A stretch of DNA of 64,000 nucleotides from Ostreococcus lucimarinus. Taxonomy: Eukaryota. This document shows positions 8,538 to 58,266 of the stretch, in pieces. The notes below the pieces were generated by a model, which was given only the letters and a program-made list of their open reading frames with translations, was not told the DNA's origin and did not search any database. Positions within the stretch are counted from its first letter, which is position 1. Each line of letters opens with the position of its first letter. The stretch is from the NCBI GenBank assembly GCA_000092065.1, contig CP000597.1; one strand, given 5' to 3'. Position numbers and translations under genes: made by a program.

Positions 8538-11500
8538 ATGCGACGGTGTTTGTACGACGCGTACGCGCACGCGTCGTCGACGCCGCGGGACGATGACGAT
8601 GGAGACGGCGACGACGGAGATGACGATGGACGTTCGACGAGCGGTCGTCGCTCGGAGACGTCGTTGTCGACGACGCCCTCGGGGGACGCGATCGCGATCG
8701 CGCGTCGCAGACGCGGAAAAGTAACCGTGCGCGTCTTTCGGTCGAGCGACGATTGGGCGCACGCGAGGGGAGGGATGGACGAGGACGAAGACGAGGACGC
8801 GACGACGCGCTGGAGCGAAGACGGCGCGGCGTTCGCGCGCGCGTTGAGCGAGACGAGGTCATCCACATCCACGTCGACGGCCACGGCAAGCGTGATGACG
8901 AGAATCGGCGAAGTGGTATGGCGATCTACGTTTGACGGCGCAGTACCGCTGGCGGGGATGGGATTGGCGCTCGCGAAGAAGAAGAAGACGTACGATTTGT
9001 TGCGAGTCAATCTCAAGGGCACGCCCACGGTGTACCGCGAGCGCGTGCGGCTGGACGACGATTTGGGTGATGAATTGGACGACCAAGTGGTGGACTCGGT
9101 GACGCTGGGTAAAAAGTTACGTCACGCGGACGGCGCCGAGTGGGTGGAGCGTGAACGCGAGCTCGTGGTTCTCGGCCGCGGTAAGACATCAGTGGGGACG
9201 GTGATCACGATGTGGACGTACGATGATGCCGATGACTTCCCAAATTTCAGGTGCATGCGAGTGATAGATTGTGGCGGGGACGTCGCACCTCGGCGAAGCA
9301 TGTTTCGTACTCCGCGCCGCTTGCGCGTGGCGCTGCGTTCGGAGGATGGTGCTTTCAGCGTCGCCGTGTGGTCGTCTATCGGATCGTTGAGCGTTTTCTG
9401 CGTCTCTAAAGACGGCGAAGAATTGGTAAAGCGTATCAATACTCGAGATGACGTGTGCGCCGCAGCATGGTGGTCTTTTGACGCGCTTGCAGTGGCGACT
9501 CGAGCGGGAAATCTCACCGTAAAGACGGTTCCCGAAGACGAGAACGTTTTGGGAGACAAACCTGAAACATTTGATTCGATCGAAGATTTAGTGTCCGTGC
9601 CGAATGTTGTGGCTGAAAATGAGCGTGGTCGTTTGTTGCTACTCGAACGTCCTCTTGAAGGTGGATGGCGACTCATCTCAATCAACGAACGAACGCCGCT
9701 CGAAATGTTGCATTCGCACATGGATGTCGAGGAGTGGGGCGTCGCCCTAACCTTGGCTCGCCAACACGGGCTCGACACGGACGAGATTTACAAGACTCGT
9801 TGGAAGCGTTCGCGCATTACGATAGAAGGCTTGACCGACTGGTTATCACGCGTATCAGATCGCGCGTGGGTGGGCGTTCACTGCCTCATCGCATGCGCCG
9901 ATTCGTACGAGATTCAGCGGCACGTGTTGGTGTACGGATTGAAGGAATCGGATGCGCAAGCGAGACGAACGTCTAAAAATGGCGGGTTGGATCCAGAGTG
10001 GAACTGGTGGATTAAGCTTCGATTGGCCTTGCTCGGTGCGCTCGATCGCGCCGATACAGTGCACGAGATCACCGGCGGGGGATTTTCCTCTCAAGTCTAC
10101 TCAAAACTTTTGCGATCGACGATTGCTCAAGCGGCGTTGACTGCGGCATATGCGAGCGATGTGAAATCTTTAGAGATCATCTTCAAGCGACACGCATGCG
10201 GGGTTCGTGACGTGATTTTCGACAGTCTTTCTGCATTGCCCGAAACGTCTCAGGTAGCGACGTATGATAAGCTTTTGCCCTGGTCTGAAGAATACGTCAT
10301 CAGCAGCGGAGCTGCGCAACTTTCGGGACGTCGCACGAGAGATTGGTCAGAGTCAGAAGCGTATCTGAAGGAAATCAATCAATGCGAGGCGGGAGATTAC
10401 GATTTAGCCCGTGCGGCCGATGTTTCGCCGTCGGTTAGTGAAATATTTGATAGCCTCGCTACGAGGGAGTGGTTAAAGTCGGCTACGGAGGAGCTGTGTA
10501 AACTCGCACGATCACCGAACGATTCGATGACGATACATTCTAACGAAGAAATGGAAACATGGACAATACGCAGGTCGTGTGAGATGGACGCGTTCGCTGG
10601 ATCTCTCAGTAGTGCGCATCAACTTTTGGATTCCGCCTCGAGATCTTTGGCTACGAGCACGCTCGTCGACTACGCGTGCGCCGCATCGACACTCGCATCG
10701 ACGGCATTCATACTTTTTGACGCAGACGATCGCCGAATTTGTGACGTTAGCCTTGAGGAATTTCTTGTGAGCGACCCATATGGACGATTATGCACGATTC
10801 TATCGATGTTGAGTGAAAAGAATATGTCTCGGCTCATGTCCGGTCCTGTCAGCGAAATCCTCGCGCACGTTGGCGGTGCGTCAGAAGACGGTGTGGTTCT
10901 CGCGCGAGAGATGATTCAACGTTGGATTTTACGAACATCTGAGGACCGAAATCTTGGGCTAGTATCTCGCATCATTCGCTGGCTCTCTTCGTCGGTAGAA
11001 TCGATCGAATTGGTCGGTGGTCCCGATGCGCTTGCCTCCGTCGTTGTCGAAGCTTCGCTATCGCACGACGATGGCGACGAAAAGTTGATAGCAGAGTTGG
11101 CTGATATGCTCAGTGATCTTCCTTCGCTCGTCGCTGAAGTACCAGTTGCGAAAAAAGCTATCTCGCGTCTGAACGCGTGCAAATTGATGCAACAAAACGA
11201 CGTGAGCGTTTCGCTGAATGACATCGTCAGCGCTGAGCGTGATGAATCCAAGGCTATTAGTTTCGTGCGTACATTCGTCGCAAACGTCGTCGCCAAAAAC
11301 TCTTCTTTGCAGTGGTCGAGTCTGTGGTCAGATCTACACGGATTACAGTCGAGTGTGTTCCGTCGCTCGCTTTCACACGATCAAGTCCTCGGTGAACTGC
11401 TGCGCGCACAACTGCGCGCAAAGGATTGGACGCACGCAAAGCGACACGTTCCCGCGAATGGCCCTGCGGGAGCCGTCGGTGCCCTTGTCGGTGGATTAAA

Positions 11501-14500
11501 AGAGCTTGGAGGCGGCGTGTCTGCCGTTATCTCGCCATCCATTGCGGAAGATATCGTTTGCTCGGTCGCTGAAGAATTCCTCGCGCGGGCCGAACACGTT
11601 GACGACGAGGCGTCGCTCGCAGCCGAAAACTGTCTTCGTTTGATGCCAACTCGAGACACAACGACAAAGAGGCTCAATTTCATCGCTGCGCTGCGTGTGC
11701 TTTCGAAGTACGAAGTTCGCCGCGCACCGAGCGCGATAAACGCTGAAAGTGCTCTCGAGATGGTGCTGGAGTGCGCGAAGAAGGACGACGCCGGATGTCG
11801 CGCGCCCGACTTTTTACAAGAAATCGCCGCCAATCTTGGTGTAAGCGACGACGAAGCACGCATGTCTATAATCCTCGCGACTGGAGTCAAAGCCCTTGAC
11901 GTTGGCGACGTAGAAGCCGCTTACGCGACGGCATCACGCCTCTGCAAGCGCAACTACGGGCCCGCTTGGAAACTGTGCGTCGACGTTGCGCGGGCCATGC
12001 CAATGGATGACACCAAAAGGGTCGCGAAAGGGTCTTTACTAGCATTTGCGCTGGTGCATGCTGATCAAGCTGTTCTCGCAACGCTCCTGGGCGATTGGCA
12101 AGCGACGCAAACGCATCAGATACTGCACGCGTTCGCCGACGCGCACGCGGGCGATGCAAGCGACGACGATGTCGAGAGATCCCTATCGAAAGCCTGCGGG
12201 GATAGTTGGATTGGAACGGGCGTTCGGCCAGGAGTAAAGACTCTCGCGCGTCATTCACACTTTGGTCGAGCTTTAGAATTGATTTTCAGCTCATCCGACG
12301 AGAAGGCGAAAGAAGCTGCAAGTGCCGTCACGTACGCACTCGGCGTTCACGCGACGAACGTATCGGACGATGTTTTGGCGAATGTCGCGCAGAACTCCAT
12401 AGAATTAGCTTTAAAGAGTTGTCGAGCGAGAGATTTTGGCTCTGAAACTCCACCACCGATGATGTGGTCCGCTATGGGGGTTTTACTGACGATGCGAGAT
12501 GCGGTGAAGGTTTCCTCCGTCGTCGACGAAGTCGCGAGCCGTATTCACGACCGCGCGACACTCCAGACGATTCTTCACTTCGGAACGTGCGTGCACGCGC
12601 TCCGAGCTCTTCGTCTGACGTGGGATTCAATTAATTTGCCGAAACCCGTCACGGTTTCTTCGCTCGTTGATTTGGTTGGGAAAATTCAGTCTCCCGGTGA
12701 CGAAATTATGGTTGACGTCGGGTTCGTGAAGCAGTTCAGATCAAGCGTGGGCTCGGTCGTCGACGCCGAGTGGTTGTCGAAAATGATTCCAGAGATCGAT
12801 GCCGGCGCATTTGCTGCAGATGGCGCGGATTATCGCAAGCGAGCCATCATGGCGCTCGCGGCTGGGAGTTCCGGTGCGCTATCCGGTGCTGAGGCGCTCG
12901 ACAACGCCTTGAGACTCGCGGATGTGTACGGCGTTGATTCGTCCGACGTCTACACCGCCCATGCCGCACTTTTAGCGAGTGACAACGCCGAAGAGGTGCG
13001 TCGAGTCACTTCTCTTTTAAAAGAGAAGCTGCCCGCACATCCGAAGAAGAGCGTGGAGACGCTCCAAACATCTGTTTGGGAGACGTTGCCGAGGAGCGGA
13101 AAAGGCGCGCTAGAATCGGCGCTAGCATATTTCGAAGTCATGAGCGCTTGCGAGGATGGCACGGCGAAAAAGTTGTGCGAGATTTCAGATGCGTTGAAGA
13201 GTCTTTCCGCTTCGTGCGTGAATATTGATTTGCACGCGTTCGTTGACGGTAAAGGAGATGCGCCGCCAGATGCTGCGGACGCGATGTTGAACGCAATTCA
13301 GCGCGCCGTTGTCGCGAATGGTCAAAGTGGATTCCCACTCGAAACAGTTGAACGCATCATCGCCGCCGTTCAAAAGTTTCCGAGTGAAATTTCAAACCTC
13401 ACCGTTCCAGAGGACGTGTTCTTCACCGTCGCTCGTTCACTCCTGGCGCCGCCGCCGGGAGCGACGAGACCGAGCCCCGATCACAGATGGGACGCTCTAA
13501 AGTCCGTGGGACTCGATCATCTTGGTGAAAAGCATCTTGTCACCATATTAAACGCCTTAATTGGTGGCGGCGTGTCCACAACGAAGATACAGAGGCCTCC
13601 ATCATCGGTCCACAAAGAACTGAACACATTCAGCGCTGAAATCTCGTCCCGGACTCGCTTGAAAGCGGTGGAAGAAGTCTTGAGCGTCGTCGGCGACGCC
13701 GAAAATCTCAGCGGCGTGCGCGCGGCGAGGGATGACCTACGCCTCGTGATTCGAGTGATGGACGACATTCCTGGACTTAATTCGACACTTTTGAGACTGC
13801 TTGAAGAATCTTTAAGCGATCGAGAGAGTTTACAAGAAGTCGCTAAATCTTGGGTTCAGAACTCGGCGACGTTTGGGCAGCTCTCCACGCTTGCGGCGAC
13901 GCTTGAGTCCGATTCCCCTGAACGGCGCGTAGACGTCCTCTTAGCCGTCTCGAGCGCTTTAAGCGACGCGTTTATAAATGTTTCCGATGAAGCATCGGAG
14001 CTTTTCAACATTGTCCGGCAAACTCTCGGGGGAGGTTCTCCCAAGGATGAGAAACTCGCCGAGGCGAGATTGAGCGCCTTCACAAAGCTCGAAGGTTTCG
14101 TCGCCGTGGCGACGCCCGTAATGCGAGGAAAAATCCTGGAAATTTTATCCGACCTCGCGAGTGAAACTTGCACACTTTGGCCTGGTTGGCGCGCGTCTCA
14201 TCAAGGTCGAGGTATCGTGAACGTCCTGCGTATGCGCACGGGAGCGCTTCTCGCCCCCTTCGGACTCGAGTCGCCGACGGAAGAATCTATTCAAGACGTC
14301 CCCAAAATGTGCGCGTATTTCTCGAATGAACTCGCGCACGGCGACGTAAAGGTTCCTTTTTCCGTGCTCGTAGAAGTTTTAACGCTCTGGGAAGAGCCAC
14401 CGAAGAGAACGAGGATAACTTTGAAGCCATGTTGGATGACTCTCTTGAAGCGAGGTTTGCGAGGCGATGAATGCGGCGAATCCATCGACATCGTCGCCGC

Positions 14501-15074
14501 TCAAATTTTCAGTAGCGGTGCATCGACGACAAAGCGGTGGTTATCGAACGAAGATCTTATGCAGCTTTTGGATGAAGCGAAGCAATCTTCCGATTACGAT
14601 GATTTACTCGTCGCCAAGTTGTCTTTTCTCCTCGGCGAACCGTTTCACGGCTCTCCGACGACTTGGGACGCCGAAGCGGTGGCGCTCGCGGTACACGCAG
14701 AACAAATTCCGAATACCTGTGCGGCTTCGGAAGACGTCTTTAAGACATTTGTTGACTTGTCGTTCGAGCACGTGCGCGGACGGGACGTGCTTCTACCGCA
14801 CATGATCGCCGCGTTAACGCGCGCCAAGATGTACGAACGCGCGGCGTCTCTCGCGCTGCGATTGACGACCGTGCATCCGGTATTCGCCGCCGATTTCGAG
14901 AGTCGTTTAGCCATCTTGCGCGAGCAATTGTACTACCGCGCGCAGGCAAAGCGCGATGGCGTTCAAACGAAGGAAGTGACGTCAGCCATCGACCGCGTCT
15001 TGGTTAAGCTCGAGACGAGCCTTGCGGGCGCGTGCGCCAGCGCCAGCGGCGCGCTCGAGATCGCGCTGTCGTGA
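8538..15074 (+). CDS. Very large (about 2,178 aa) protein, probably NBAS / MAG2-interacting-protein-2 / Sec39-like ER-Golgi tethering factor
   Basis: Uninterrupted 6.5-kb ORF. The segment ERTPLEMLHSHMDVEEWGVALTLARQHGLDTDEIYKTRWKRS resembles the region following the NBAS N-terminal propeller as I recall it (ERTPEEMY...EEYEEALSLA..YGLDTDLVYQRQW); the rest is helical repeats. Family assignment is from memory only. Confidence 0.45.
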   Translation: MRRCLYDAYAHASSTPRDDDDGDGDDGDDDGRSTSGRRSETSLSTTPSGDAIAIARRRRGKVTVRVFRSSDDWAHARGGMDEDEDEDATTRWSEDGAAFARALSETRSSTSTSTATASVMTRIGEVVWRSTFDGAVPLAGMGLALAKKKKTYDLLRVNLKGTPTVYRERVRLDDDLGDELDDQVVDSVTLGKKLRHADGAEWVERERELVVLGRGKTSVGTVITMWTYDDADDFPNFRCMRVIDCGGDVAPRRSMFRTPRRLRVALRSEDGAFSVAVWSSIGSLSVFCVSKDGEELVKRINTRDDVCAAAWWSFDALAVATRAGNLTVKTVPEDENVLGDKPETFDSIEDLVSVPNVVAENERGRLLLLERPLEGGWRLISINERTPLEMLHSHMDVEEWGVALTLARQHGLDTDEIYKTRWKRSRITIEGLTDWLSRVSDRAWVGVHCLIACADSYEIQRHVLVYGLKESDAQARRTSKNGGLDPEWNWWIKLRLALLGALDRADTVHEITGGGFSSQVYSKLLRSTIAQAALTAAYASDVKSLEIIFKRHACGVRDVIFDSLSALPETSQVATYDKLLPWSEEYVISSGAAQLSGRRTRDWSESEAYLKEINQCEAGDYDLARAADVSPSVSEIFDSLATREWLKSATEELCKLARSPNDSMTIHSNEEMETWTIRRSCEMDAFAGSLSSAHQLLDSASRSLATSTLVDYACAASTLASTAFILFDADDRRICDVSLEEFLVSDPYGRLCTILSMLSEKNMSRLMSGPVSEILAHVGGASEDGVVLAREMIQRWILRTSEDRNLGLVSRIIRWLSSSVESIELVGGPDALASVVVEASLSHDDGDEKLIAELADMLSDLPSLVAEVPVAKKAISRLNACKLMQQNDVSVSLNDIVSAERDESKAISFVRTFVANVVAKNSSLQWSSLWSDLHGLQSSVFRRSLSHDQVLGELLRAQLRAKDWTHAKRHVPANGPAGAVGALVGGLKELGGGVSAVISPSIAEDIVCSVAEEFLARAEHVDDEASLAAENCLRLMPTRDTTTKRLNFIAALRVLSKYEVRRAPSAINAESALEMVLECAKKDDAGCRAPDFLQEIAANLGVSDDEARMSIILATGVKALDVGDVEAAYATASRLCKRNYGPAWKLCVDVARAMPMDDTKRVAKGSLLAFALVHADQAVLATLLGDWQATQTHQILHAFADAHAGDASDDDVERSLSKACGDSWIGTGVRPGVKTLARHSHFGRALELIFSSSDEKAKEAASAVTYALGVHATNVSDDVLANVAQNSIELALKSCRARDFGSETPPPMMWSAMGVLLTMRDAVKVSSVVDEVASRIHDRATLQTILHFGTCVHALRALRLTWDSINLPKPVTVSSLVDLVGKIQSPGDEIMVDVGFVKQFRSSVGSVVDAEWLSKMIPEIDAGAFAADGADYRKRAIMALAAGSSGALSGAEALDNALRLADVYGVDSSDVYTAHAALLASDNAEEVRRVTSLLKEKLPAHPKKSVETLQTSVWETLPRSGKGALESALAYFEVMSACEDGTAKKLCEISDALKSLSASCVNIDLHAFVDGKGDAPPDAADAMLNAIQRAVVANGQSGFPLETVERIIAAVQKFPSEISNLTVPEDVFFTVARSLLAPPPGATRPSPDHRWDALKSVGLDHLGEKHLVTILNALIGGGVSTTKIQRPPSSVHKELNTFSAEISSRTRLKAVEEVLSVVGDAENLSGVRAARDDLRLVIRVMDDIPGLNSTLLRLLEESLSDRESLQEVAKSWVQNSATFGQLSTLAATLESDSPERRVDVLLAVSSALSDAFINVSDEASELFNIVRQTLGGGSPKDEKLAEARLSAFTKLEGFVAVATPVMRGKILEILSDLASETCTLWPGWRASHQGRGIVNVLRMRTGALLAPFGLESPTEESIQDVPKMCAYFSNELAHGDVKVPFSVLVEVLTLWEEPPKRTRITLKPCWMTLLKRGLRGDECGESIDIVAAQIFSSGASTTKRWLSNEDLMQLLDEAKQSSDYDDLLVAKLSFLLGEPFHGSPTTWDAEAVALAVHAEQIPNTCAASEDVFKTFVDLSFEHVRGRDVLLPHMIAALTRAKMYERAASLALRLTTVHPVFAADFESRLAILREQLYYRAQAKRDGVQTKEVTSAIDRVLVKLETSLAGACASASGALEIALS

Positions 15075-27839: not shown

Positions 27840-29483
27840 TTATCTACTGGTCTCCACTGGGCTCTCCTTCTTTTCACCCGCTTGCGCCGCAGGCATGGTC
27901 ACCTCCTTCGTCGCACTCGCGCCCAAGGCGCCGTCGATGACGCGACGGTACTCGCTCTTCATTTTCACACCGCTCAAGACTTCTATGCGCTCTTTTTGGT
28001 AGAAAATTTGCGTCATAGGCGTCCCAGTCACACCCGCGGCTTCCGCAATTTCAGGATCAGCAGCGATATCTATCTCAACATAGTGCACCTTGTCTCCGTA
28101 CTCCGCGATGACCTTGTCCAACATCGGCTTCAAGCGTCGACATGGGCCGCAAGTGGGCGCCGAGTACATGACCATGACCACGCGGTCTGACTCATGGTAA
28201 AGCTTTCTGAGGGCATACTGACCGTAGTGCTTCGTGACATTGATATCGAATGAGTCTTCATCCTCTCCCTGGATCGCTCGCTCTTCTTCCGAAACAGACT
28301 CCTCTCGTTCGACGCTCTTGCGCTGCTTCGTTTGGTGGTGCTCAACGAGGAGGTTCTTCTCCGTCAAGTAACGCTCGACGGAGATGGCAGCCATGCATCC
28401 GGATCCCGCAGCCGTGATGGCTTGCCGGAACTCTTGATCGTGAAGATCACCGGCCGAGAACACACCCTCAATGGACGTCCTGGTACCCTCTCGCACGACG
28501 ACGTACCCCGCTTCGTCAAGTTCGATTTGGTTGCCAAAAATTTTGCTGTTCGGCGTGTGTCCGATGCCGTAAAACAACCCCTTCACCTTGAGCTGACGCT
28601 CATCTCCGTTATTCGTGTCGCGAAGCTTGAGCGCCCCCAAGTTTCCCTTGCTGTTCGGCGATCCGTCCACGCATTCCGTGTTGTAATGTACGGTGATTGC
28701 CTTGTGTTGAAGCACCCTATCCTGCATAGCCTTGCTGGCGCGCATCGTCGACCCGCGCACGAGTAAGTGCACGTGCTTGGCGTACTTTGTCAAGTACACC
28801 GCTTCTTCCGTGGCGGTGTCACCTCCTCCGACCACCGCGACTTCTTCGCCCTTAAAAATCGGGCTCGCCCCATCGCAAATCGCGCATGCGCTGATCCCTC
28901 GGCTCCACAGCGTCGCCTCGGCGGGAATTCCGAGTCGTTTCGCCGTCGCCCCCGTGGCGACGATCACGCTATTCGCCTTCACCGTTCGATCGGACGACGA
29001 CACCGTGAACGGGCGAGAAGTAAAATCTACCGTCACCACGTCCTCCGTGTGCATCACAGCCCCCCATCGCTCCGCTTGTTTGCGCATCTTGTCCATCAAG
29101 TCGGGCCCCGTCACGCCTTCGGGGAAACCTGGAAAGTTTTCCACCTCTGTCGTCGTCATGAGTTGTCCTCCCGGCACGCCTCCGGCTTGAAACCCCTCAA
29201 ACATCAATGGACGTAAGTTCGCGCGTCCCGCGTAGATCGCGGCGGTGTATCCAGCCGGTCCAGACCCGATGATGACGCAGTTCTCCACGTCCGGGGCGTC
29301 CTCGGTGGCATCTTGCTCTTGCGCGCTCGCCCGCGTCGTCGTCGTCGTCGTCGTCGTCCTCGCGCGTCGCGCGCGCGCGTCGATCGTCGATCGTCGGCAT
29401 CGATTCGCGCGCGCGTGCGATGCTCTCGTCGTCGTCGTCGTCGTCACCTTCACCGCGGCGACGGCGCGCGCGTGCGTCCGCAT
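27840..29483 (-). CDS. NTRC: NADPH-dependent thioredoxin reductase C (thioredoxin reductase fused to a C-terminal thioredoxin domain), plastid-type
   Basis: FAD/NADPH motifs [20 protein letters not shown] and [19 protein letters not shown], redox-active CAICDG, then a Trx domain with [11 protein letters not shown] (WCGPC-type). T/R/A-rich N-terminal leader. Start at ATG 29483 (track start 29594 is GTG). Confidence 0.85.
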
Positions 29484-29944
29484 CGAAATCGCTCGCGCGT
29501 GCTCCACCGCGCGTCGAAGTCGCGGATAATACACGCGCCCGGACCGCCGCGCGAGGGCGCGCCGGGCGCGGTCGGTCGCGGTCGGTCGCGTCACTCACAT
29601 GGCGTTCGAAACACGCGAAATGCGTCCTCGCGGGACGCGATCGGGCAAAAAACGTCCCGAAAAGTAAAAAAAACCATCGCGACCCGCGCGCCGGGGCGTT
29701 CGAACAGTCGAGCGCGCGCGTCCGTCTGTCAAGCTGTCGGTCCTTTCGTCCTGTCCTTTCGTCCTGTCCGTCCCGAGGCCGATGCGCGACGCGGCGGAGC
29801 TGACGGACATCGAACCAGACGACGCGACGGTGGATCCGAGGGCGAAAATTAACTACGACGTGCGCGAGCGATGCGCGCGACGCCCGACCCGCGTCTCGAG
29901 ACGACCGGGCCGACGACTGCACCGTTCAGTCCGACGAGTGAACC

Positions 29945-32082
29945 GTGCGGACGACGGACGAGGGACGACGGAGACTGACCGAACGCGCGCGACGACAGGA
30001 TTGTAACGTCGGTGACTACGTCATCATCAAGGGCGAAAACGAGGACGGGGAAGAGGAGGATTGGTTCGGACAGGCGCGCGACGACAAAGCGCCGCGAGAC
30101 GCGATTGACGCTCTCGAGACGCGAGCGAGAGAGACTGACGGCGATCCTCGTGCGTGCGCGCAGATAAAAGCGAAGGTTGCGCAAAACGAACTCGCCACGG
30201 TGAAATTTCTGCAAAAATGCGAAAATTTAGAAGAATTCATCGATGAGGTGCGTCCGCGAACCGCGCCGGCGAGGCGACTTGAATATTTTCGCATCGACGG
30301 GCTTTGAGCGCGCGCTGACTGACGATTGATTTCACGCGAGCAGTTTCCCGACGCGGAGGAGAGCGATATCACTGACATGTATCAGTGGTGGCAAGGTTAC
30401 GGGACAGAAAACGTCTCACCGGATACCTTCAAGGAGTTGGGTCCCAATATTTTCCACAGGGTACGAACGCCTCGGCGTTTCGAGTGGTCGCGGTCGCGAG
30501 CGCGATCAGACGCGCGATTTACTGACGGATTGCTCGCGCTCAAACAGGCGAGACGATCAGGTTTGGGTGACACGGGCAAGAAGCGGTACTTTTGTCGAGC
30601 TTCCACGTGCATGGGCCGTTGCAATGTGGAAGCCGGACTGAAGCGAAAGGCGCCGGCGACGGCGACTGTGAAGCTAGAGGTTGACGTGGACCTGGAGCCG
30701 AAGAAGAAAGTTAGCGATCTGCTACTCATTCCAAAAGACGCTGTCGAGTGGGAGCCGAACGTTATGGCCGAGTGTCGCTCGACTGACGTCGACAATTACC
30801 CGTTCGAATACGCTACCATGGTACGTACGTCAACGATGCGACGCGACGATCGCCCAAAGCCCCGACTGACATCGTCCACTTTTTACAGCGAGAGCAAGCG
30901 GGAGAAACAGAGAAACATCCGAGAGATTTGAAATCTGCGTGCTACTGCCATGGGATTCGAGGCCTGCGCAAAGTACGTAAGTCAGACGTTACGTGTCCAA
31001 TTATTTAATTATTCCATTAGGATCACACCGATGACGTGCACGCGCTTCACGGCGGTGTTTGTCCAGCTCTCGCTATTCTGGTGCGTATAATTAATTCATC
31101 AACGCACACATCTAGTTTTGCTTACGAAATCTATCGCAGCGCGGTATGGTGATCCATTTGTTTTATGTGAAAGAGGTGCCAAATAAAGGCTACGGAATTT
31201 TCGCCCGAGAACGCATTTCGAAGGGTGCTTACCTCTTCGAATACGTCGGGTAAGCGTGTTCGACGATGTTGTTCATCAATCGTGACTTTTATTGCGGTTA
31301 GGGAGATCATCACGCGTGCGGAAGCGAGCAGACGGGAAGAACAGTACATGGCGAACGGGTACGAATTAATTATTATTTCGACGATGAGAGTAAAAATACT
31401 GACTGCACGCTCGACTTTCTCGAATTCACAGCCAATTTTTTCTCGTCGACATTCAAGGTACGAAGTGAAACGATATGCGTGCTATGCGATGCGCAAACAA
31501 CGCGGGAGATTGAAAGAATTAATTATTAATTGACGGTATATTTTTTTTCGAACAGGGCAAAGAAATTCTCCGTCGTACATGGCATACACGATGGATATGA
31601 CCCGCAAGGGCAATTTAGCGCGTATGCTCAATCACGGCTGCACGCCGAACGTTCGGCTGGTCGAGGCACGGGTTGATGAAGCACTTTTGTCGGTGCGTCT
31701 CCACCTCGGATTAATTAATCGCTGGGCTTGAATTAAATTATTTCACTTTGCAGGGCGTTCAGTCAAAGTTCAGGTCTGCGTCGCGGATGTGTTGCATAGC
31801 GATAGAGGACATCGAGGTACGCGCGATCGAAGCGTCATTTCGCTACTCAAGCGCACGTTACCTTATAGTGGACGATTAATTGCGTTTTATTTTATTTCCG
31901 ACATTGCAGGTGGGCGAGGAACTTTGCATAGACTACGTCCCTGTGAAGAAAGGTGGCAGCATGCGCAAGACTGTTCAATGCGACTGCGGTTCCAGCGACT
32001 GCAGAGTACGTTCCGCGCGTGTGTTCGCCTTTTGTCACTCGAAACTAATTTCGTCGTTTGCAGGGTTGGATTTTCTGACCGG
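29945..32082 (+). CDS. SET2/ASH1-class SET-domain histone-lysine methyltransferase gene with AWS-like and post-SET Cys motifs, about 12 exons / 11 short introns; 5' start uncertain
   Basis: Hand-spliced exons give in-frame GMVIHLFYVKEVPNKGYGIFARERISKGAYLFEYVG|EIITRAEASRREEQYMANG|QFFLVDIQ|GQRNSPSYMAYTMDMTRKGNLARMLNHGCTPNVRLVEARVDEALLS|GVQSKFRSASRMCCIAIEDIE|VGEELCIDYVPVKKGGSMRKTVQCDCGSSDCR|GWIF*, i.e. the SET core (GWG, NH.C.PN, GEEL..DY) plus a post-SET CxCxxxxC; unspliced reading hits stops. Every intron has a GT(A/G)(C/A)G donor, a CTGAC-like branch and an AG acceptor. Upstream exons (CNVGDYVIIKGENEDGEEEDWFGQ...; ACYCHGIRGLRK) join in frame. Confidence 0.7.
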
Positions 32083-32352
32083 TTCACGGTTCACATGCTG
32101 CAGCGACGACAAGCCCGACGCGAGCGTTCGGGTGCCTTCGGGGGCTTTGACGGTCAAGTAGGAAAGAATATTGAATTTTTGTGAAATGCACGCGATTTAG
32201 TCCCGTAATATTCCTTCCACTGCGTCGAAAGCTCGATTCACGCGTGCGTGCGCACGCGTGCTGAGTTCCGTCCTCCGGACGGTGACCTCGTGCCGCACTC
32301 CCACCCTCGGCTGAACGCGAGTAAACTCGACTTCGAGGCGCGGTCACGCGAT

Positions 32353-32890
32353 ATGGACGAGTCAACAGCACGCGCGGAACGTTTACGAGCGATGCGCGAG
32401 GCCGCGTCGAGCGCGAACGCCGACGCACAGGCGAATGCGAACGCACCTTCGAGTACGCTTCCAGCGCCCTTCGTCGACCTCGGGGACGGCGACGATCGTA
32501 CGCCGGGGTTTTACACAGGTGCCGGAGCGTCGAGTATGGATATGAGTGATATTCCTGCGGAATCCACGCGTGCGCCACGCGCTCCACCACCTCCACCACC
32601 TCCGCCGCGTTGGCTAGGGGAACAGAATCAGCGCTTCGGCGGCGGCGGAGGTCGAGGCGGGGGCGGACGAGGCGGCGGACGAGGCGGCGGGCGAGGCGGG
32701 GGATCCCGAGGGCACAAAGCCGCACGTACGGGCGATTATCGCTCTGAAAACACATTCAATCCAGCGAATTATTACAAGGTACGTGCCTCGCGCCAATTTG
32801 CTGTACGCGTGCGCGACTGACGCTCGTTCGTTTCCTCTGGCGCAGCCAACGATGTGCGTCGATCCTTGGCTCACCCTCGAGCGCACCTGA
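32353..32890 (+). CDS. RGG/GAR-box protein, two exons (32353..32778 and 32846..32890; intron 32779..32845)
   Basis: (GGGRGG)n RGG box and a poly-Pro tract. The intron GTACGTGCC...CGACTGAC...CTGGCGCAG is canonical and splicing adds the C-terminus PTMCVDPWLTLERT in frame (stop TGA 32888-32890, frame checked by hand). Confidence 0.55.
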
Positions 32891-33045
32891 TCGCGTTCAT
32901 GATCGATTCTATTGATTGTTTCTAGCTCATTCCTTAGCCATTAATAGCTCGCGTGTAAGACTCAATAGCTGAGTGTGCTTTGTCCAACCGCCGACGCCGA
33001 GAGCGTCAGACGTCGGTGCGCGGCGGTCACCGACTTGAAGTCCCG

Positions 33046-34182
33046 ATGAGCGTCGACGGTGACGACGAGCCCGTGATAGATATGAATGACGCCATGCATC
33101 GCGCCGTGGCGCTCAAGGCCGAGCGATTGCGACGCACGCGAGCGTCGTACGAGGCCGCACCGGTGTTCGTTCGGGACACGCTCGCGACGGATCGAGACGA
33201 AAACTACGTCGAATTGCGAAAGAAACCGCTGGCGGCACGCTTGACGTTTGCCAACAAACTTCTCGATGATGCCAAAGCGTTGGTGCGAGAGGAAGCCCAC
33301 GAGGACGCGCTGGAGGCGTACACAGACGCCTTGGCGGCGTTTTGTCACTTTGAGCGACCGAGCGGGACAGAGAGCACAGAGACGTTGACGTACGTAGATT
33401 ATCTCGAAGACGACGAACGTCAAAGCGAAGGCGTAGAAATGGTGAAACGAATCATGCTTAACGCATCGGCGTGCTTGATGAACATCGATCTGAGGAAGCA
33501 TGCGAAGGCGGTAGAATGGGCGACGACGCGAGCGTTGCGCGCTGACGCCGCGTGCGCCGCCGCATACTACAGAAGAGGACGAGCCAGGACCATGATGACG
33601 GAAGAAGGGACTGTAGAGCAGGCGTTGGATGATTTTAAACGCGCCGTGGATCTCGATCCGGGCGAGAAGCGGTATGTGCGAGCGTTAGCGGAGCACAGTA
33701 GAGAAGTTATGAAGACGACTGAGGTGCAACGAGCCGTCTTCGGAAAGATGTTTTCCGGCGCAAGCGCTATCTACGCCGACGACAAGGCGACAACCGTCGC
33801 AAAATCCACTGTCGACGAGGAGGTCGAACGCGTGCTTCTAGACGAAAGCTTGCTCGTGAAGGCTCAGGAGATGGGTTTCAATGTCGACGCCGACGATTTC
33901 CGTCGAGAACTCGCTTCCCGAGTCCGCGACGAAGTGCACGACAGTCGACGCGAGCGGGCGAAAGAGCTCGGTTTAAATCTTGATGATGATGATGTCAAGC
34001 GCGCGATCGAGTATTTCGAGCGCTCGCGTCGCGGTGGTGATTCGGATGCGAGCTCACGAACTTTTGCGCGCTTCGTTGCTCGCGCTCTCATCGTCCTCGT
34101 CGTCGCTCGCGTCGTGTACGTCGTCCACAAGATTGCGACGAGCCCTATCGATTCCCTCGATGTGCGCGGGGTGATGGATTGA
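33046..34182 (+). CDS. Tail-anchored TPR-repeat protein (TPR domain plus C-terminal transmembrane anchor), Tom20/OEP61-like topology
   Basis: Helical TPR-like repeats (ALEAYTDALAAF..., AYYRRGRARTMM...ALDDFKRAVDLDP) and C-terminal TM ARALIVLVVARVVYVVHKIA; start at ATG 33046 (track start is TTG). Confidence 0.5.
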   Translation: MSVDGDDEPVIDMNDAMHRAVALKAERLRRTRASYEAAPVFVRDTLATDRDENYVELRKKPLAARLTFANKLLDDAKALVREEAHEDALEAYTDALAAFCHFERPSGTESTETLTYVDYLEDDERQSEGVEMVKRIMLNASACLMNIDLRKHAKAVEWATTRALRADAACAAAYYRRGRARTMMTEEGTVEQALDDFKRAVDLDPGEKRYVRALAEHSREVMKTTEVQRAVFGKMFSGASAIYADDKATTVAKSTVDEEVERVLLDESLLVKAQEMGFNVDADDFRRELASRVRDEVHDSRRERAKELGLNLDDDDVKRAIEYFERSRRGGDSDASSRTFARFVARALIVLVVARVVYVVHKIATSPIDSLDVRGVMD

Positions 34183-44748: not shown

Positions 44749-45585
44749 TCACGCGACGTCGATCGATCCCGGGAAACGAAACCTAAAATCGACGCACTCG
44801 CGACCTTCCTCCGAAGCCTTGAGCGAATACTTGCTGTCGAATCGAGCGAAAGCGTCGCACCGCGCCCAACCGCGCGGTTGCGCAAAGTCGCGAAACACGC
44901 GGCGCACGTGCTCGGCGTACTCGGCGTCGTCCGTCGCCACGCTCAGCCTGCCTCCCGGTCGCAGCGCCCTTTCGAGCAGGACGAACAGCAGAGGATTCAC
45001 CAAGCGCCTGTGCGCTTTGGATTCGCCGCGCCACGGGTCCGGAAAGTGGCACGCGACTTCGTCCAGCGAGCGCGCCGTGGCGTACGCGTCCAGCACCCAC
45101 AATCCGTCCGCTCTCGACACCTTGACGCGGTCGCCAAGGCCGCGCGCTTCGATTCCCATCAGCGCCTGCGCGACGCCCGGTCGGTGCACCTCGCATCCGA
45201 CGAAGACGTGGTCGTCGAACGCCGCCGCCGAGCTCAACAAGTTATCACCCATCCCGAATCCGACTTCGAGCGCGCGGCGTCGTCCCGCGCCGCGCGTGCC
45301 GAACAGCGCGTCGTAATCCAGCGTCGTCCACAACGCCGCGTCCGTCTCGCGCGCGCGTCGCGACGCACCGTCGTCGCTTCCCGCGTCGCCGCGTCCCTCG
45401 CGCGCGCGTCGCGCCTCGCGCGCGTCGAACGCGACGCCGTGCGCGCCGTACAGCTCTCGCAGCGCGCGCTTCTGCGCCTTGGACGCGCGCGCGCGGCGGT
45501 CGAGGTACGTCTTGTGCCACGGTCGGTCCAGCGCGCGGCCGCGCGACCGCGGCGCGAGCGACGCGTCGCCGTCGAGCGTCGCCAT
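44749..45585 (-). CDS. TRMB: tRNA (guanine-N7)-methyltransferase, TrmB/METTL1 family
   Basis: CHFPDPWRGESKAHRRLVN matches the TrmB FPDPWxKxRHxKRR motif; upstream SAM-fold motifs (EVGFGMGDNL) present. Confidence 0.75.
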   Translation of the reverse strand: MATLDGDASLAPRSRGRALDRPWHKTYLDRRARASKAQKRALRELYGAHGVAFDAREARRAREGRGDAGSDDGASRRARETDAALWTTLDYDALFGTRGAGRRRALEVGFGMGDNLLSSAAAFDDHVFVGCEVHRPGVAQALMGIEARGLGDRVKVSRADGLWVLDAYATARSLDEVACHFPDPWRGESKAHRRLVNPLLFVLLERALRPGGRLSVATDDAEYAEHVRRVFRDFAQPRGWARCDAFARFDSKYSLKASEEGRECVDFRFRFPGSIDVA

Positions 45586-46397
45586 CGAGTGACGCGCGCG
45601 GACGTCGTCGCGCGACGACGACGCGCATGCGCGACGACGGCGACGCCCGAGCGGTGGCGACGATCGCGCTCGACGCGCGCGCGGCGCGCGAGGACGACGC
45701 GCGACGGATGCGCGACGCGCGCGCGGCGAGGGACGAGGCGGCGAGGCGCGCGGCGCGCGTCGACGCGCGACGACGCGCGGCGCTCTACGAACGCGCGCTC
45801 CGAGACGCGCGTCGCGAGTTCGTCGACGATCTCCGTCGCCGGCACGCCGCGCGAATCGCGCGCGCGTCGTCGTCGCGCGCGCCGACGACGTCCGCGACGA
45901 CGTCCTCGTCGGCGCGCGTCGCCGCCGCGCCGTCGCCGTCGCCCTCGCGCGTCGACGCGACGACCGCGTCGTCGCCGAGCGCGCTCGATTTCCGTTCGTT
46001 CGCGCGTCCGGCGTCGTCGTTCGTCGCGTCGCCGTCGCCGTCGCCGCGTCCGCCGTCGCCCCTCGCGTCGCCGGACGCGCGCGACGTTCGTCTCTGGTCT
46101 CGCGTCGACGCGATGTGTCGAAGCGCCGACCGTCTGCGAGCGCGTCTCGCGTGAGCGCATCGAAACCCGTCGCGCTTCGAGCGGTCGGTCGAGGCGTCGG
46201 AATTCGGTCGTCGTCTCGAATCTAGACATTCTCGCCGCCGTTCGCGCGCGTTCGTTCGCGTTCGTCGTTCGTCGTCGTCCGCGCTGTAAAATTCAAATCT
46301 TCATGTTGTGTCCGTGTGTGAGCTGTCGCGAGTCTCACTCGATCGCCCGTCGGACGCGCGATCGTCCCGCGCGTCGCGCCACGTCGACGCGCGCGAC

Positions 46398-51286: not shown

Positions 51287-52531
51287 GTCATCTTCCTCCT
51301 CCCCGAAATCTTCATCCATCTCAAACATTTCATCCTCGTCCTTCTTGAGCTTTGACTTTGATCCCTTCTTTTCCGAAGACTGCAAAGGAGAGCCGCCGCT
51401 CGCCGCCGCCATCTGTTGCGTGACGTCGGCGGCGCTCGCTGGCGCTTGCATGGGCGCAACCTGTTGCGGCTTACCGTCTGCATCTAACAACCACGCGTTC
51501 CAGTCACCCATTTTACGAATCTTGTCGTTGCCGGCGCTGATTTCCACCGTCTTAGAGCCAACGAGAGCGTCGTAAATCATGGCTGGATCCGGAGTCATCA
51601 TGCGAATGCGATTGAAACTCGCGATGACGGACAAGGCGATCCATCCCTCCTTGGGGTCCATCTTAGATCTCAAAAACAAATCCTTGCACAAATTCTCCAC
51701 GCTGAAGTAATACTCCACCTGCTGCTTCACAGCGGAAAGAATTTGATCTCGTTGCGGCACTTGCGCCGGCATGATGTGTTGCGGAGGGTAATACATTTGA
51801 GCGCCCTGCGGCATGTAATATCCACCCTCGAACGGCGCCTGATACGAAGAATCAAAGTTCTTGTTACCCCGTCCACCTCGACCGCCCCGACCTCCTCGTC
51901 CCGCGGCGTCGTACTGGAAACGACCGTCGTACCCGTGTCCTCTCGCCCAAGTCTTGTCGCCTTCGCGTCCGCCCCGTCCGCCTCTTCCGCCACCATTACC
52001 GCCTCTGCCACCGTTGTTACCGCGCGCGCCGCCGCCACCTCGATTCCCTCCATTCTTATCACCACCATTCTTCGCGTTCTTACCCTTGCCGTTGCCTCCC
52101 GCCTTGCCGCCTTGCGAGCCCGACGTCCCTCCGCTCTGTTGGCCCTCGCCCGTCCTCGCCCTCGAAGGGGGCACGGTGTCGGGTTTAAGATCTGGATTTT
52201 TCGCATCGCCCAAAGTCGGCCAAGTCACGGGTTTCACCGCCGCGAGCGCCGCGGCCGCGGCCGCATCGCTCGCCACCGTCGGTTTCCCCCACGCCGGCTT
52301 TGTCGGTTCCTCTCGCGTCCCGCCCTCGCTTCTCCGCTTCCCCGCCTCCGCGCCTTCTCCCGATGCCCCCGATCCTTCACTACCTACTCCACCACCACCA
52401 GCGTTCCCTAGACTCCGTCCCTCTCCCGCGCTCGACGCTCGCCTCTGCGTTTCATTCGCATCCTTCCCGCTCGCGCCCTCGCTCGTCTGGCTCGCCCTCC
52501 CTCCGCTCACGACGCTCGCCCACGCGCTCAT
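50249..52531 (-). CDS. LARP1: La-related protein 1 (LARP1): La motif plus C-terminal DM15 repeats
   Basis: La motif [47 protein letters not shown]15 region [60 protein letters not shown]...YGLEKFWAF matches LARP1 (FWSFFLRDNFNRKMYEEF...YGLECLFRYYSYGLEKKFR...YGLEKFWAF); poly-Asp from a (GTCATC)n run. Confidence 0.85.
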
Positions 52532-53121
52532 GTTCGCCGATCCACGACCGAGTTCTTCCCGTCACCTGTCGTCATCGTCATCGTCGCGTTCGTCAGTCTT
52601 CCCCTCTTCCGCCCTCGCCCGTTCCTGTCGCGTCGCGCGTGGCGCGCGTCTCCTCGCGCGCCGCGCCCTCGCGCCTGCAAAACCCTCCAACCGCCCGCCT
52701 CGCGACGCATTCGCCCTCTCCACGCGCGCGCGCGTCGTCACCGCGCGTCACCGTCGCGCCGATCGCGCGTTAACTTTCCCTCGATCTCCTCCCGCGCGCG
52801 TCGCGTCCCGTCGCCGTCGCGTCGCGGCGTCGCGCGTCGCGCGCGCGCGTCCCCGCGCGCGCGCGCGAAAAGTGGTCGTCCGTCGTCGTCGTCGCGTCGC
52901 GCCCTCGCGGTCGCGCGCGTCGCCCTCGCGCGTCGCGCGTCGCGCGCTCGAATTTTATTCGCACCTTTTTCGCGCCGCGTCGCGCGCCGCGACGTCGCGC
53001 TCGACCGCGGTCGCGCGCGATGTGACGACGCGACGAGTAATATCTAGCGTGACGAGGCGTCGCGGGCGGGGTGCCGTCGGTTGGTTGTTTTCCAAAACCC
53101 TACTTACTATTTACCCATACC

Positions 53122-58065: not shown

Positions 58066-58266
58066 ACGGTTCTGAGAATCTTACGCGTTGACGCGGGTCT
58101 CGACGACGCCGCGAGGGGTGCGTTCGCGAAGCGGCGCTGTAGTCTCGAACAAACTCCAACAAAATGAAATGCTTACTGATCATACCTAACAACACGAACA
58201 TCGCGCTTAATTCGACGACTAGAGGAAATTTTATCAAAACGCTCGGTTCGGGGCGCGCTAAACGCG

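Follow-up and report, generated by a model that had tools for sequence, protein, structure and literature searches.

Conserved UA-rich patches in the late introns of a SET-domain gene of Ostreococcus lucimarinus, a candidate splicing element

A SET-domain gene with 13 introns

The stretch of DNA analyzed here (the window) comprises 64,000 nucleotides (nt) of contig CP000597.1 of the green alga Ostreococcus lucimarinus, and its subject is a SET-domain gene whose introns 6, 7, 9, 10, 11 and 12 carry the words TTAATT, AATTAA or TAATTA (hereafter the motif) in short A/T patches close to their splice sites. Comparison of sequences across lineages makes it probable that these words are a functional splicing signal and not there by chance. 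The gene model was built by spliced protein-to-DNA alignment, guided by homologues and transcripts, and consists of the following parts (GC, G+C content as a fraction):

29782..32078, + strand, coding sequence of the SET-domain gene, 424 amino acids (aa), 14 exons and 13 introns, from the spliced alignment and transcript contig L003
29860-29998, + strand, intron 1, 139 nt, GC 0.71, donor GTGCGC, ACTGAC branch site, phase 0
30074-30163, + strand, intron 2, 90 nt, GC 0.69, GC-AG type, donor GCGCGC, CTGAC branch site, phase 0
30248-30343, + strand, intron 3, 96 nt, GC 0.61, canonical (CTGACTGAC)
30461-30547, + strand, intron 4, 87 nt, GC 0.62, canonical (ACTGAC)
30821-30888, + strand, intron 5, 68 nt, GC 0.56, canonical (ACTGAC)
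30973-31020, + strand, intron 6, 48 nt, GC 0.33, without CTRAC branch site
31081-31139, + strand, intron 7, 59 nt, GC 0.37
31250-31301, + strand, intron 8, 52 nt, GC 0.42, phase 2, motif in no lineage
31359-31431, + strand, intron 9, 73 nt, GC 0.37, phase 2, CTGAC branch site present
31432..31457, + strand, exon 10, a 26-nt microexon between introns 9 and 10
31458-31555, + strand, intron 10, 98 nt, GC 0.38, phase 1
31693-31753, + strand, intron 11, 61 nt, GC 0.41, without CTRAC branch site
31817-31909, + strand, intron 12, 93 nt, GC 0.44, without CTRAC branch site
32006-32063, + strand, intron 13, 58 nt, GC 0.50, no motif, CTAAT branch-like site

The SET-domain gene at this locus is real and expressed, and the phases of its 13 introns are, in order, 0,0,0,0,0,0,0,2,2,1,0,0,0. 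A spliced JGI contig from an environmental metatranscriptome (L003) was aligned with the modelled mRNA free of gaps over 1433 nt at 99.65% identity, and junctions 5-13 were independently confirmed by a spliced Logan contig (L001), which is the splice-junction check that the first-pass annotation of this DNA had asked for. That annotation had described an intron-dense SET gene with a shared motif in an intron-poor neighbourhood, and this picture is borne out by the transcripts, by the shuffling experiments given below and by a scan for the donor, CTRAY branch and acceptor pattern, which returned only scattered, unvalidated candidates outside the gene. It had, however, counted about 11 introns starting from 29945. 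The intron density stands, whereas the introns number 13, the coding sequence begins at 29782, and 29945-29998 is merely the 3' part of intron 1. A structure in which intron 1 spanned 29945-29998 and a GT at 30064 served as a donor was rejected as it broke the reading frame; homologues and transcripts led instead to 29860-29998 and to a GC-AG intron 2.

The donor of intron 2 is GC (GCGCGC) in the window and in one close relative (L006), while it is GT (GTGCGC) in five others (L007, L008, L009, L011 and L014), which are about 92-96% identical to the window; intron 2 therefore represents a natural GC-AG / GT-AG difference among close relatives. The lengths of introns 2 and 4 are divisible by three and neither intron has a stop codon in frame, so that retention of one or the other would lengthen the protein by 30 or 29 residues. 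None of the matches in our protein searches was an NCBI or UniRef entry of O. lucimarinus or Ostreococcus tauri corresponding to the SET protein, and the gene appears to be unannotated in the reference annotations. This is probably due to a structure that defeats gene finders, namely 14 small exons, including the 26-nt microexon, and a GC-AG intron.

The late introns are AT-rich and carry a common word

The first five introns have a GC of 0.56-0.71, and in each of them an (A)CTGAC branch site precedes the acceptor by about 20 nt; from intron 6 onward the GC drops to 0.33-0.50. This is the shift to AT-rich introns that had been noticed earlier from "intron 4" on, which is the true intron 6 (GC 0.33). 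Likewise, the six introns reported then as sharing a motif (4, 5, 7, 8, 9 and 10 of the earlier count) correspond to introns 6, 7, 9, 10, 11 and 12. Canonical donors and CTGAC sites had been ascribed to the whole set; introns 1-5 do have the CTGAC site, intron 2 together with a GC donor, and introns 6, 11 and 12 are devoid of CTRAC. The motif patches are the following:

30999..31013, + strand, intron 6 patch, AATTATTTAATTATT, ends 7 nt before the 3' splice site, TTAATT in 6/6 lineages
31087..31096, + strand, intron 7 patch, ATAATTAATT, immediately after the donor GTGCGT
31363..31378, + strand, intron 9 patch, GAATTAATTATTATTT, from intron position +5
31516..31535, + strand, intron 10 patch, GAATTAATTATTAATTGACG, its A/T run adjoins a TTGAC branch-like site and stops 24 nt short of the 3' splice site
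31709..31720, + strand, patch 11a, GATTAATTAATC
31730..31743, + strand, patch 11b, GAATTAAATTATTT, ends 10 nt before the 3' splice site
31874..31882, + strand, intron 12 patch, GATTAATTG, followed by the U-rich run TTTTATTTTATTT

The copies with the longest shared core, GAATTAATTATTA, are those of introns 9 and 10, which flank the microexon.

The window as a whole has a GC of about 0.58. TTAATTA occurs in it seven times, with 1.45 matches expected, and six of the seven lie in introns of the SET gene; for AATTAATT there are four matches, three of them in the SET gene, versus 0.41 expected. When introns 6-13 were shuffled with preservation of dinucleotides, TTAATT was expected 0.76 times and TAATTA 0.37 times, as compared with 7 and 5 observed, and 1.1 motif-bearing introns were expected as compared with six. 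The observed values were reached in none of the 5000 shuffles. Furthermore, 30-nt windows with at most 30% GC cover 2457 nt outside the gene and contain three matches there, whereas inside the gene they cover 396 nt and contain 17. In the window, the word is thus more than a by-product of AT-rich DNA. A scan of the window found no motif in the exons, promoter or 3' untranslated region (UTR) of the gene. As the motif was selected after it had been noticed in this same DNA, its recurrence in other lineages, described below, serves as the out-of-sample test.

The low GC does not extend to the exons. The GC at third codon positions (GC3) of the SET gene is 0.63 (0.66 in the 5' part and 0.60 in the 3' part), with 0.60-0.75 in eight neighbouring genes, and the exon GC3 of the SET orthologue is normal in other lineages as well. 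AT-richness is therefore a property of the introns and not of the region, and a regional effect of mutation or recombination is not its cause. This also bears on the proposal that the gene lies in a compositional patch like those of the prasinophyte outlier regions, which was not supported. Five uninterrupted open reading frames of the window are identical to public proteins; three of these are NCBI records, two of them named as proteins of O. lucimarinus CCE9901 (for example XP_001422175 and XP_001422070). The gene is located on a 366,173-bp chromosome of this strain. The small outlier is chromosome 18, with 149 kb (PMC3491373). The big outlier, chromosome 2, is far larger than 366 kb. The chromosome is hence neither of the two.

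The patches are conserved while the rest of the introns is not

Twelve environmental genomic loci that are 91-99.8% identical to the window have kept all the introns, with no presence/absence difference among them. In the lineage of about 92% identity, changes were found at 2 of 60 sites in the A/T patches, 32 of 232 other intronic A/T sites and 20 of 178 intronic G/C sites (Fisher p=0.023 for patch sites versus other intronic A/T sites). The lower rate at patch sites indicates that the patches evolve several-fold slower than comparable sites.

More distant loci were reached by synteny, with homologues of the neighbouring NTRC gene as an anchor:

27843..29594, - strand, NTRC (thioredoxin reductase fused to thioredoxin; Pfam), divergently oriented neighbour of the SET gene

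In this way five more Ostreococcus-type lineages were obtained (L016/17, L018, L019/20, L021 and L022), all with NTRC as the neighbour, of which L019/20 is Ostreococcus mediterraneus. The O. mediterraneus gene model is based on a protein deduced from a transcript (P0002); its introns likewise number 13, with phases as in the window. In the protein alignment, all 13 intron positions and phases coincide in the six lineages, which answers the proposed comparison of orthologues and indicates that the introns are old; the positions and phases of the introns flanking exon 10 are accordingly conserved in 6/6. The SET proteins of the other lineages are 40-46% identical to that of the window.

The motif is present in 28 of the 76 orthologous introns, whereas shuffles that preserve dinucleotides gave 7.3 +/- 2.4, and at most 16 among 1000. 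In three syntenic loci, nearly all matches to TTAATT, AATTAA and TAATTA over 15-18 kb are concentrated in the SET orthologue; in the 17.7-kb O. mediterraneus locus L019 it holds 10/11, 13/13 and 7/7 of them, respectively. An unbiased search for 8-mers common to at least four of the six lineages in each orthologous intron returned solely words of the AATTAATT family, in introns 6, 9 and 11. With 6- and 7-mers, the same search also found the ACTGAC(G) branch site of intron 1, the ACTGAC of which is common to 6/6 lineages. Words of the AATTAATT family are about as well conserved as those of this branch site. In about 190 kb of sampled Mamiellales DNA, a single AATTAATT was found outside SET genes; it lies at 12629-12636 of the window, inside a 2178-aa open reading frame (ORF; 8538-15074).

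The places of the patches are conserved as well. The patch of intron 6 ends 1-7 nt before the acceptor in 6/6 lineages, and GAATTAATTA occupies positions +5 to +14 of intron 9 in 5/6. In intron 10, the patch abuts a TTGAC/CTGAA branch-like site across lineages, with GAATTAATTATTGAC at the corresponding place in O. mediterraneus, and intron 11 has two A/T runs in 5/6 lineages and one in L022. The intron 7 patch, ATAATTAATT, is identical in O. mediterraneus and degenerate in L016, L018, L022 and L021. Introns 1-5, 8 and 13 are without the motif across lineages, the exception being a single match in intron 1 of L021. The remainder of each motif intron could not be aligned across lineages, whereas the motif stays at orthologous positions; this pattern fits one of the earlier candidate explanations, a shared intronic regulatory or splicing element, and on sequence grounds favours it.

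Could the words nevertheless be a functionless relic, either of one propagating AT-rich element from which the introns descend or of slippage-prone (AATT)n in a locally AT-biased region? The motif is a simple sequence, and the phylogenetic range of the introns would be compatible with such an origin. A Mantoniella antarctica-like homologue (L023 4226-6301) has seven introns of ordinary GC without the motif, of which about four are at positions common to Ostreococcus (introns 2, 3, 4 and 6), while the GC-rich Micromonas-like homologues (L002 6001-7314 and L024 2279-3694) are intronless; introns 7-13 are therefore specific to the Ostreococcus branch, through gain there or loss elsewhere. However, six lineages have the introns fixed at the very same positions, and the introns show no similarity beyond the A/T runs: with these removed, local alignment of introns 6-12 gave a similarity of 9.81 versus 10.05 in shuffles for O. 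lucimarinus and 10.67 versus 10.89 for O. mediterraneus. These two results also speak against the introner-like family considered earlier. Moreover, the patches are conserved amid unalignable flanks and change more slowly than other A/T sites, the exon GC3 is normal, and AT-rich DNA elsewhere in the window mostly lacks the word. We thus consider such a relic very improbable.

Position of the patches and their possible role in splicing

Introns 1-5 use the standard Mamiellales signals, namely a donor of the GTGCG type and, in GC-rich sequence, a CTGAC branch site some 20 nt ahead of the acceptor. Six of the last eight introns lack most of these signals; each of them has instead one or two UA-rich patches built around the core AAUUAAUU, in many cases extended to GAAUUAAUUA. 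In introns 7 and 9 the patch follows the 5' splice site directly, while in introns 6, 10, 11 and 12 the patches lie shortly before the region of the branch site or the 3' splice site. A CTRAC branch site is present in 4 of the 28 motif introns and in 30 of the 48 others (p=4e-5, and p=0.016 for introns 6-13 alone), and where a lineage is without the motif (L016 introns 7 and 12; L021 introns 10 and 12), CTRAC is found in that intron. In addition, U outnumbers A on the sense strand of the A/T runs (430 T versus 307 A, p=7e-6), and degenerate patch variants are (UUUA)n-like, never A-rich.

These findings led us to propose that the patches are a selected, protein-read UA-rich RNA element for intron recognition or splicing that replaces strict GC-rich signals, a reading to which we assign about an even chance. 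In the pre-mRNA, the patches would act as intron-recognition or splicing-enhancer elements in place of the canonical GC-rich signals, much as U/UA-rich elements do in land-plant introns, with a UBP1/TIA-1-type or SF1/STAR-type RNA-binding protein as the likely reader. In introns 7 and 9, the copies at +5 are too near the donor to be branch sites; they resemble the U/UA-rich elements downstream of 5' splice sites to which UBP1-type proteins bind (PMC3355732). TIA-1-type proteins bind such elements as well. Copies close to the 3' end may at the same time serve as branch sites, as UUAAU conforms to the yUnAy consensus for these sites. In plants, U/UA-rich intron elements are bound by UBP1, RBP45 and RBP47 (PMC3355732), and the branch-like hexamer found most often in AT-rich introns of rice and Plasmodium is CTAATT (PMC2483917, table). 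The presence of patches in several introns of one gene could make its splicing, and hence the methyltransferase level, adjustable.

Several points weigh against this proposal: (i) the gene models of L016, L018, L021 and L022 are predictions from homology and GT-AG borders, with two doubtful introns, so that only those of O. lucimarinus and O. mediterraneus rest on transcripts; (ii) the six lineages are phylogenetically related, and the counts taken over them are not independent; (iii) the sense-strand U bias of the patches (0.58) hardly differs from that of the surrounding intron sequence (0.56) and is weak evidence; (iv) the anticorrelation between motif and CTRAC is partly an effect of base composition; (v) general UA-richness does not explain why the exact word was retained; and (vi) its palindromic core is, on sequence alone, compatible with action at the level of DNA.

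The last point leads to a different reading, in which a cluster of palindromic TAATTA/AATTAATT sites would bind a protein of the homeodomain, ARID, AT-hook or a similar kind, or the patches would position nucleosomes or methylation. They would so regulate transcription or chromatin of the SET gene from within its introns, a plausible location given that the genome has almost no intergenic space. The core is a perfect palindrome, eight patches within about 900 bp are conserved across lineages, and TAATTA is the homeodomain-binding core. On the other hand, every patch lies by a splice site, at positions +2 to +11 from the donor or no more than ~35 nt ahead of the acceptor, that of intron 9 being at +6 in 5/6 lineages, and exons, promoter and 3' UTR contain none. 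The patches are, furthermore, interchangeable with CTRAC branch sites, their degenerate variants are U-rich on the sense strand only, and their flanks are asymmetric, a 5' G being common and a 3' C rare. In view of this, we regard DNA elements as unlikely.

The self-complementarity of the copies could also serve pairing within the pre-mRNA, by which exons would be looped or splice sites joined so as to control skipping or the order of splicing. The conceivable partners are introns 6 and 7, which flank exon 7; the beginning of intron 9 and the end of intron 10, on either side of the 26-nt microexon; and the two copies within each of introns 11 and 12. Indeed, in the minimum free energy fold of intron 6-exon 7-intron 7 both patches are paired (z = -1.77; 5/200 shuffles as good), and folds of intron 9-exon 10-intron 10 pair both intron ends in most lineages. 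Nevertheless, the energy of the duplex between the 5' part of intron 9 and the 3' part of intron 10 ranked 14 to 120 of 121-169, near the median in 5/6 lineages, and the z-scores of the folds are weak or positive. The intron 7 patch is degenerate in four lineages in which its presumed partner in intron 6 is kept, and helices of 8-10 bp consisting of A-U pairs only are marginally stable. Pairing therefore seems to us quite unlikely to account for the patches.

Finally, the patches might be a premature-stop safeguard, because TAATTAATTAA repeats put TAA in three frames and would direct transcripts with retained introns to nonsense-mediated decay, the core factors of which are reported to be expressed in Mamiellales (PMC13298755). 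For the window introns 6 and 12, which bear the motif and have a length that is a multiple of three, the first in-frame stop does lie inside the patch. In a survey of 31 motif-bearing introns, however, it fell in the A/T run in only 10, and seven had no in-frame stop at all; the most conserved copy, that of window intron 9, yields none. Besides, a single TAA would suffice, with no need for positional conservation. The survey largely refutes this explanation, which we deem highly improbable.

Going beyond the proposed splicing element, AAUUAAUU might be the word of a second, sequence-specific pathway of intron recognition or splicing control in Ostreococcus, with a dedicated RNA-binding reader. 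We offer this tentatively and consider it rather doubtful. Were it true, the word could be the missing signal that enables splicing of AT-rich Mamiellales introns devoid of a branch site, which would then not be simply eroded, or else a gene-specific switch that sets the level of a lineage-specific SUV39-like methyltransferase through controlled splicing of six introns and a 26-nt microexon.

The encoded protein

Pfam detected a SET domain (5.8e-22) and no other domain in the window protein; Pre-SET and chromodomain were not detected, and AWS gave no Pfam match even at E up to 5. Among solved structures, Clr4 (1.2e-19) and SUV39H2 (7e-15) come closest, followed by Set2 (3.8e-12) and SETD2 (about 2e-9). 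The SET2-class label given to the gene by the first-pass annotation is not supported, given the lack of an AWS match and the rank of Clr4 ahead of Set2. By similarity, the protein appears closest to the SUV39/Clr4 class. It resembles the H3K9 methyltransferases of this class in the best match of its SET and post-SET region and in its post-SET CxCx4C and NH(S/G)C motifs, and differs from them in that Pfam detected neither the Pre-SET zinc cluster nor a chromodomain and in that its N-terminal half is lineage-specific. Members of the family returned by the protein searches came solely from Ostreococcus, Mantoniella and Micromonas-like sequences. A structure model of the O. mediterraneus orthologue, built from a five-sequence alignment, reached a pLDDT (predicted local distance difference test) of 34.5, which is too poor for a fold search.

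Other observations at the locus

The 5' region of the gene varies strongly. The NTRC-SET intergenic sequence together with exon 1 and intron 1 (29543-29998) diverges sharply among close lineages: the blastn match to the ~92% lineage is interrupted between 29542 and 29780, indels are numerous in intron 1, and L006 and L007 have a different sequence (ATGAGCGG...) at the position of the window start codon. The shared promoter and 5' UTR contain short tandem repeats, gtcctttcgtcctgtcctttcgtcctgtccgtcc and ggtcggtcgcggtcggtcgc, at 29738-29775 and 29570-29590. Positions 1-149 of L003 match neither the window nor the other fetched loci, and either an assembly chimera or an alternative 5' end is possible.

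At the 3' end, positions 902-2436 of L001 (window 32059-33592) continue unspliced through a convergent 223-aa ORF (32087-32755, minus strand) into the next gene, which suggests overlapping or read-through transcripts. No Rfam match indicative of an intron-hosted RNA gene was found in 29600-32300 at E up to 1. A candidate intron at 58118-58222, with TTAATT near its end, falls within intergenic or 3' UTR sequence. Local GC peaks occur at 45001-46000 (0.75) and 52001-53000 (0.70), the latter with strong negative GC and AT skew. In L024, the SET gene adjoins a TPR gene, as it does in Ostreococcus.

Comparison with known intron systems

With clusters of homeodomain TAATTA sites, the SET gene has in common the identical core and the clustering of copies. 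Its copies are, however, all intronic and by splice sites, with none in the promoter, and this is a resemblance only. Micromonas introner elements (PMC3879977) are likewise a case of several introns sharing sequence, and their IE-C class is short, about 67 nt. They are similar along their length, present in hundreds to thousands of copies, strain-specific and prone to occur in high-GC regions, whereas the SET introns share only a word of 8-10 nt, are fixed in six lineages and are AT-rich.

The U/UA-rich elements of land-plant introns (Goodall and Filipowicz 1989, reviewed in PMC3355732) are similar to the SET patches in being UA-rich, near splice sites and U-biased on the RNA strand, and both apparently stand in place of strong consensus signals. 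The plant elements are compositional and found in nearly all introns, while the SET case involves a specific palindromic word in six introns of one gene, in a genome that is otherwise GC-rich.

The nearest comparison is provided by the introns of the Mamiellales outlier/mating-type (BOC1) region, described as short (<75 nt), AT-rich (<43% GC) and lacking a discernible branch-site motif or other conserved signal (PMC3879977). They have recently been explained as the result of erosion without recombination, with heavy intron retention (PMC13298755, PMC13308817). The SET introns resemble them in being AT-rich, many per gene and mostly without CTGAC, with a sharp drop of GC at the exon-intron borders. 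In length, introns 6, 7, 8, 9, 11 and 13 measure 48-73 nt, but introns 10 and 12 measure 98 and 93 nt; GC is 0.33-0.42 in introns 6-11, but 0.44 in intron 12 and 0.50 in intron 13. As to location, the likeness fails, since the SET gene belongs to a chromosome of ordinary composition and has a normal exon GC3. As to signals, CTRAC is absent from 24 of the 28 SET motif introns, yet the conserved AATTAATT word is present; in the literature we consulted on AT-rich Mamiellales introns, no description of a conserved word of this kind was found. Unlike BOC1 genes, the SET gene also holds five canonical GC-rich introns.

Mamiellales genomes contain two populations of introns, of which the GC-rich one has very strict signals. 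In the current view, AT-rich, branch-site-poor introns of Mamiellales are confined to the outlier/mating-type region, attributed to erosion and linked to poor splicing (PMC13298755). The SET gene is a natural counter-example, in which AT-rich and mostly branch-site-less introns stand beside canonical ones in one transcript and in an ordinary chromosome region. That this form has persisted in six lineages with proteins only 40-46% identical, and that a conserved word occupies conserved places, is better accounted for by selection than by erosion. Apart from adding a SUV39-like gene that was absent from the matches in the reference proteomes searched, the locus, with both intron types in one gene, offers a compact and tractable substrate for asking how an intron-poor alga whose splice signals are strict recognizes non-canonical introns.

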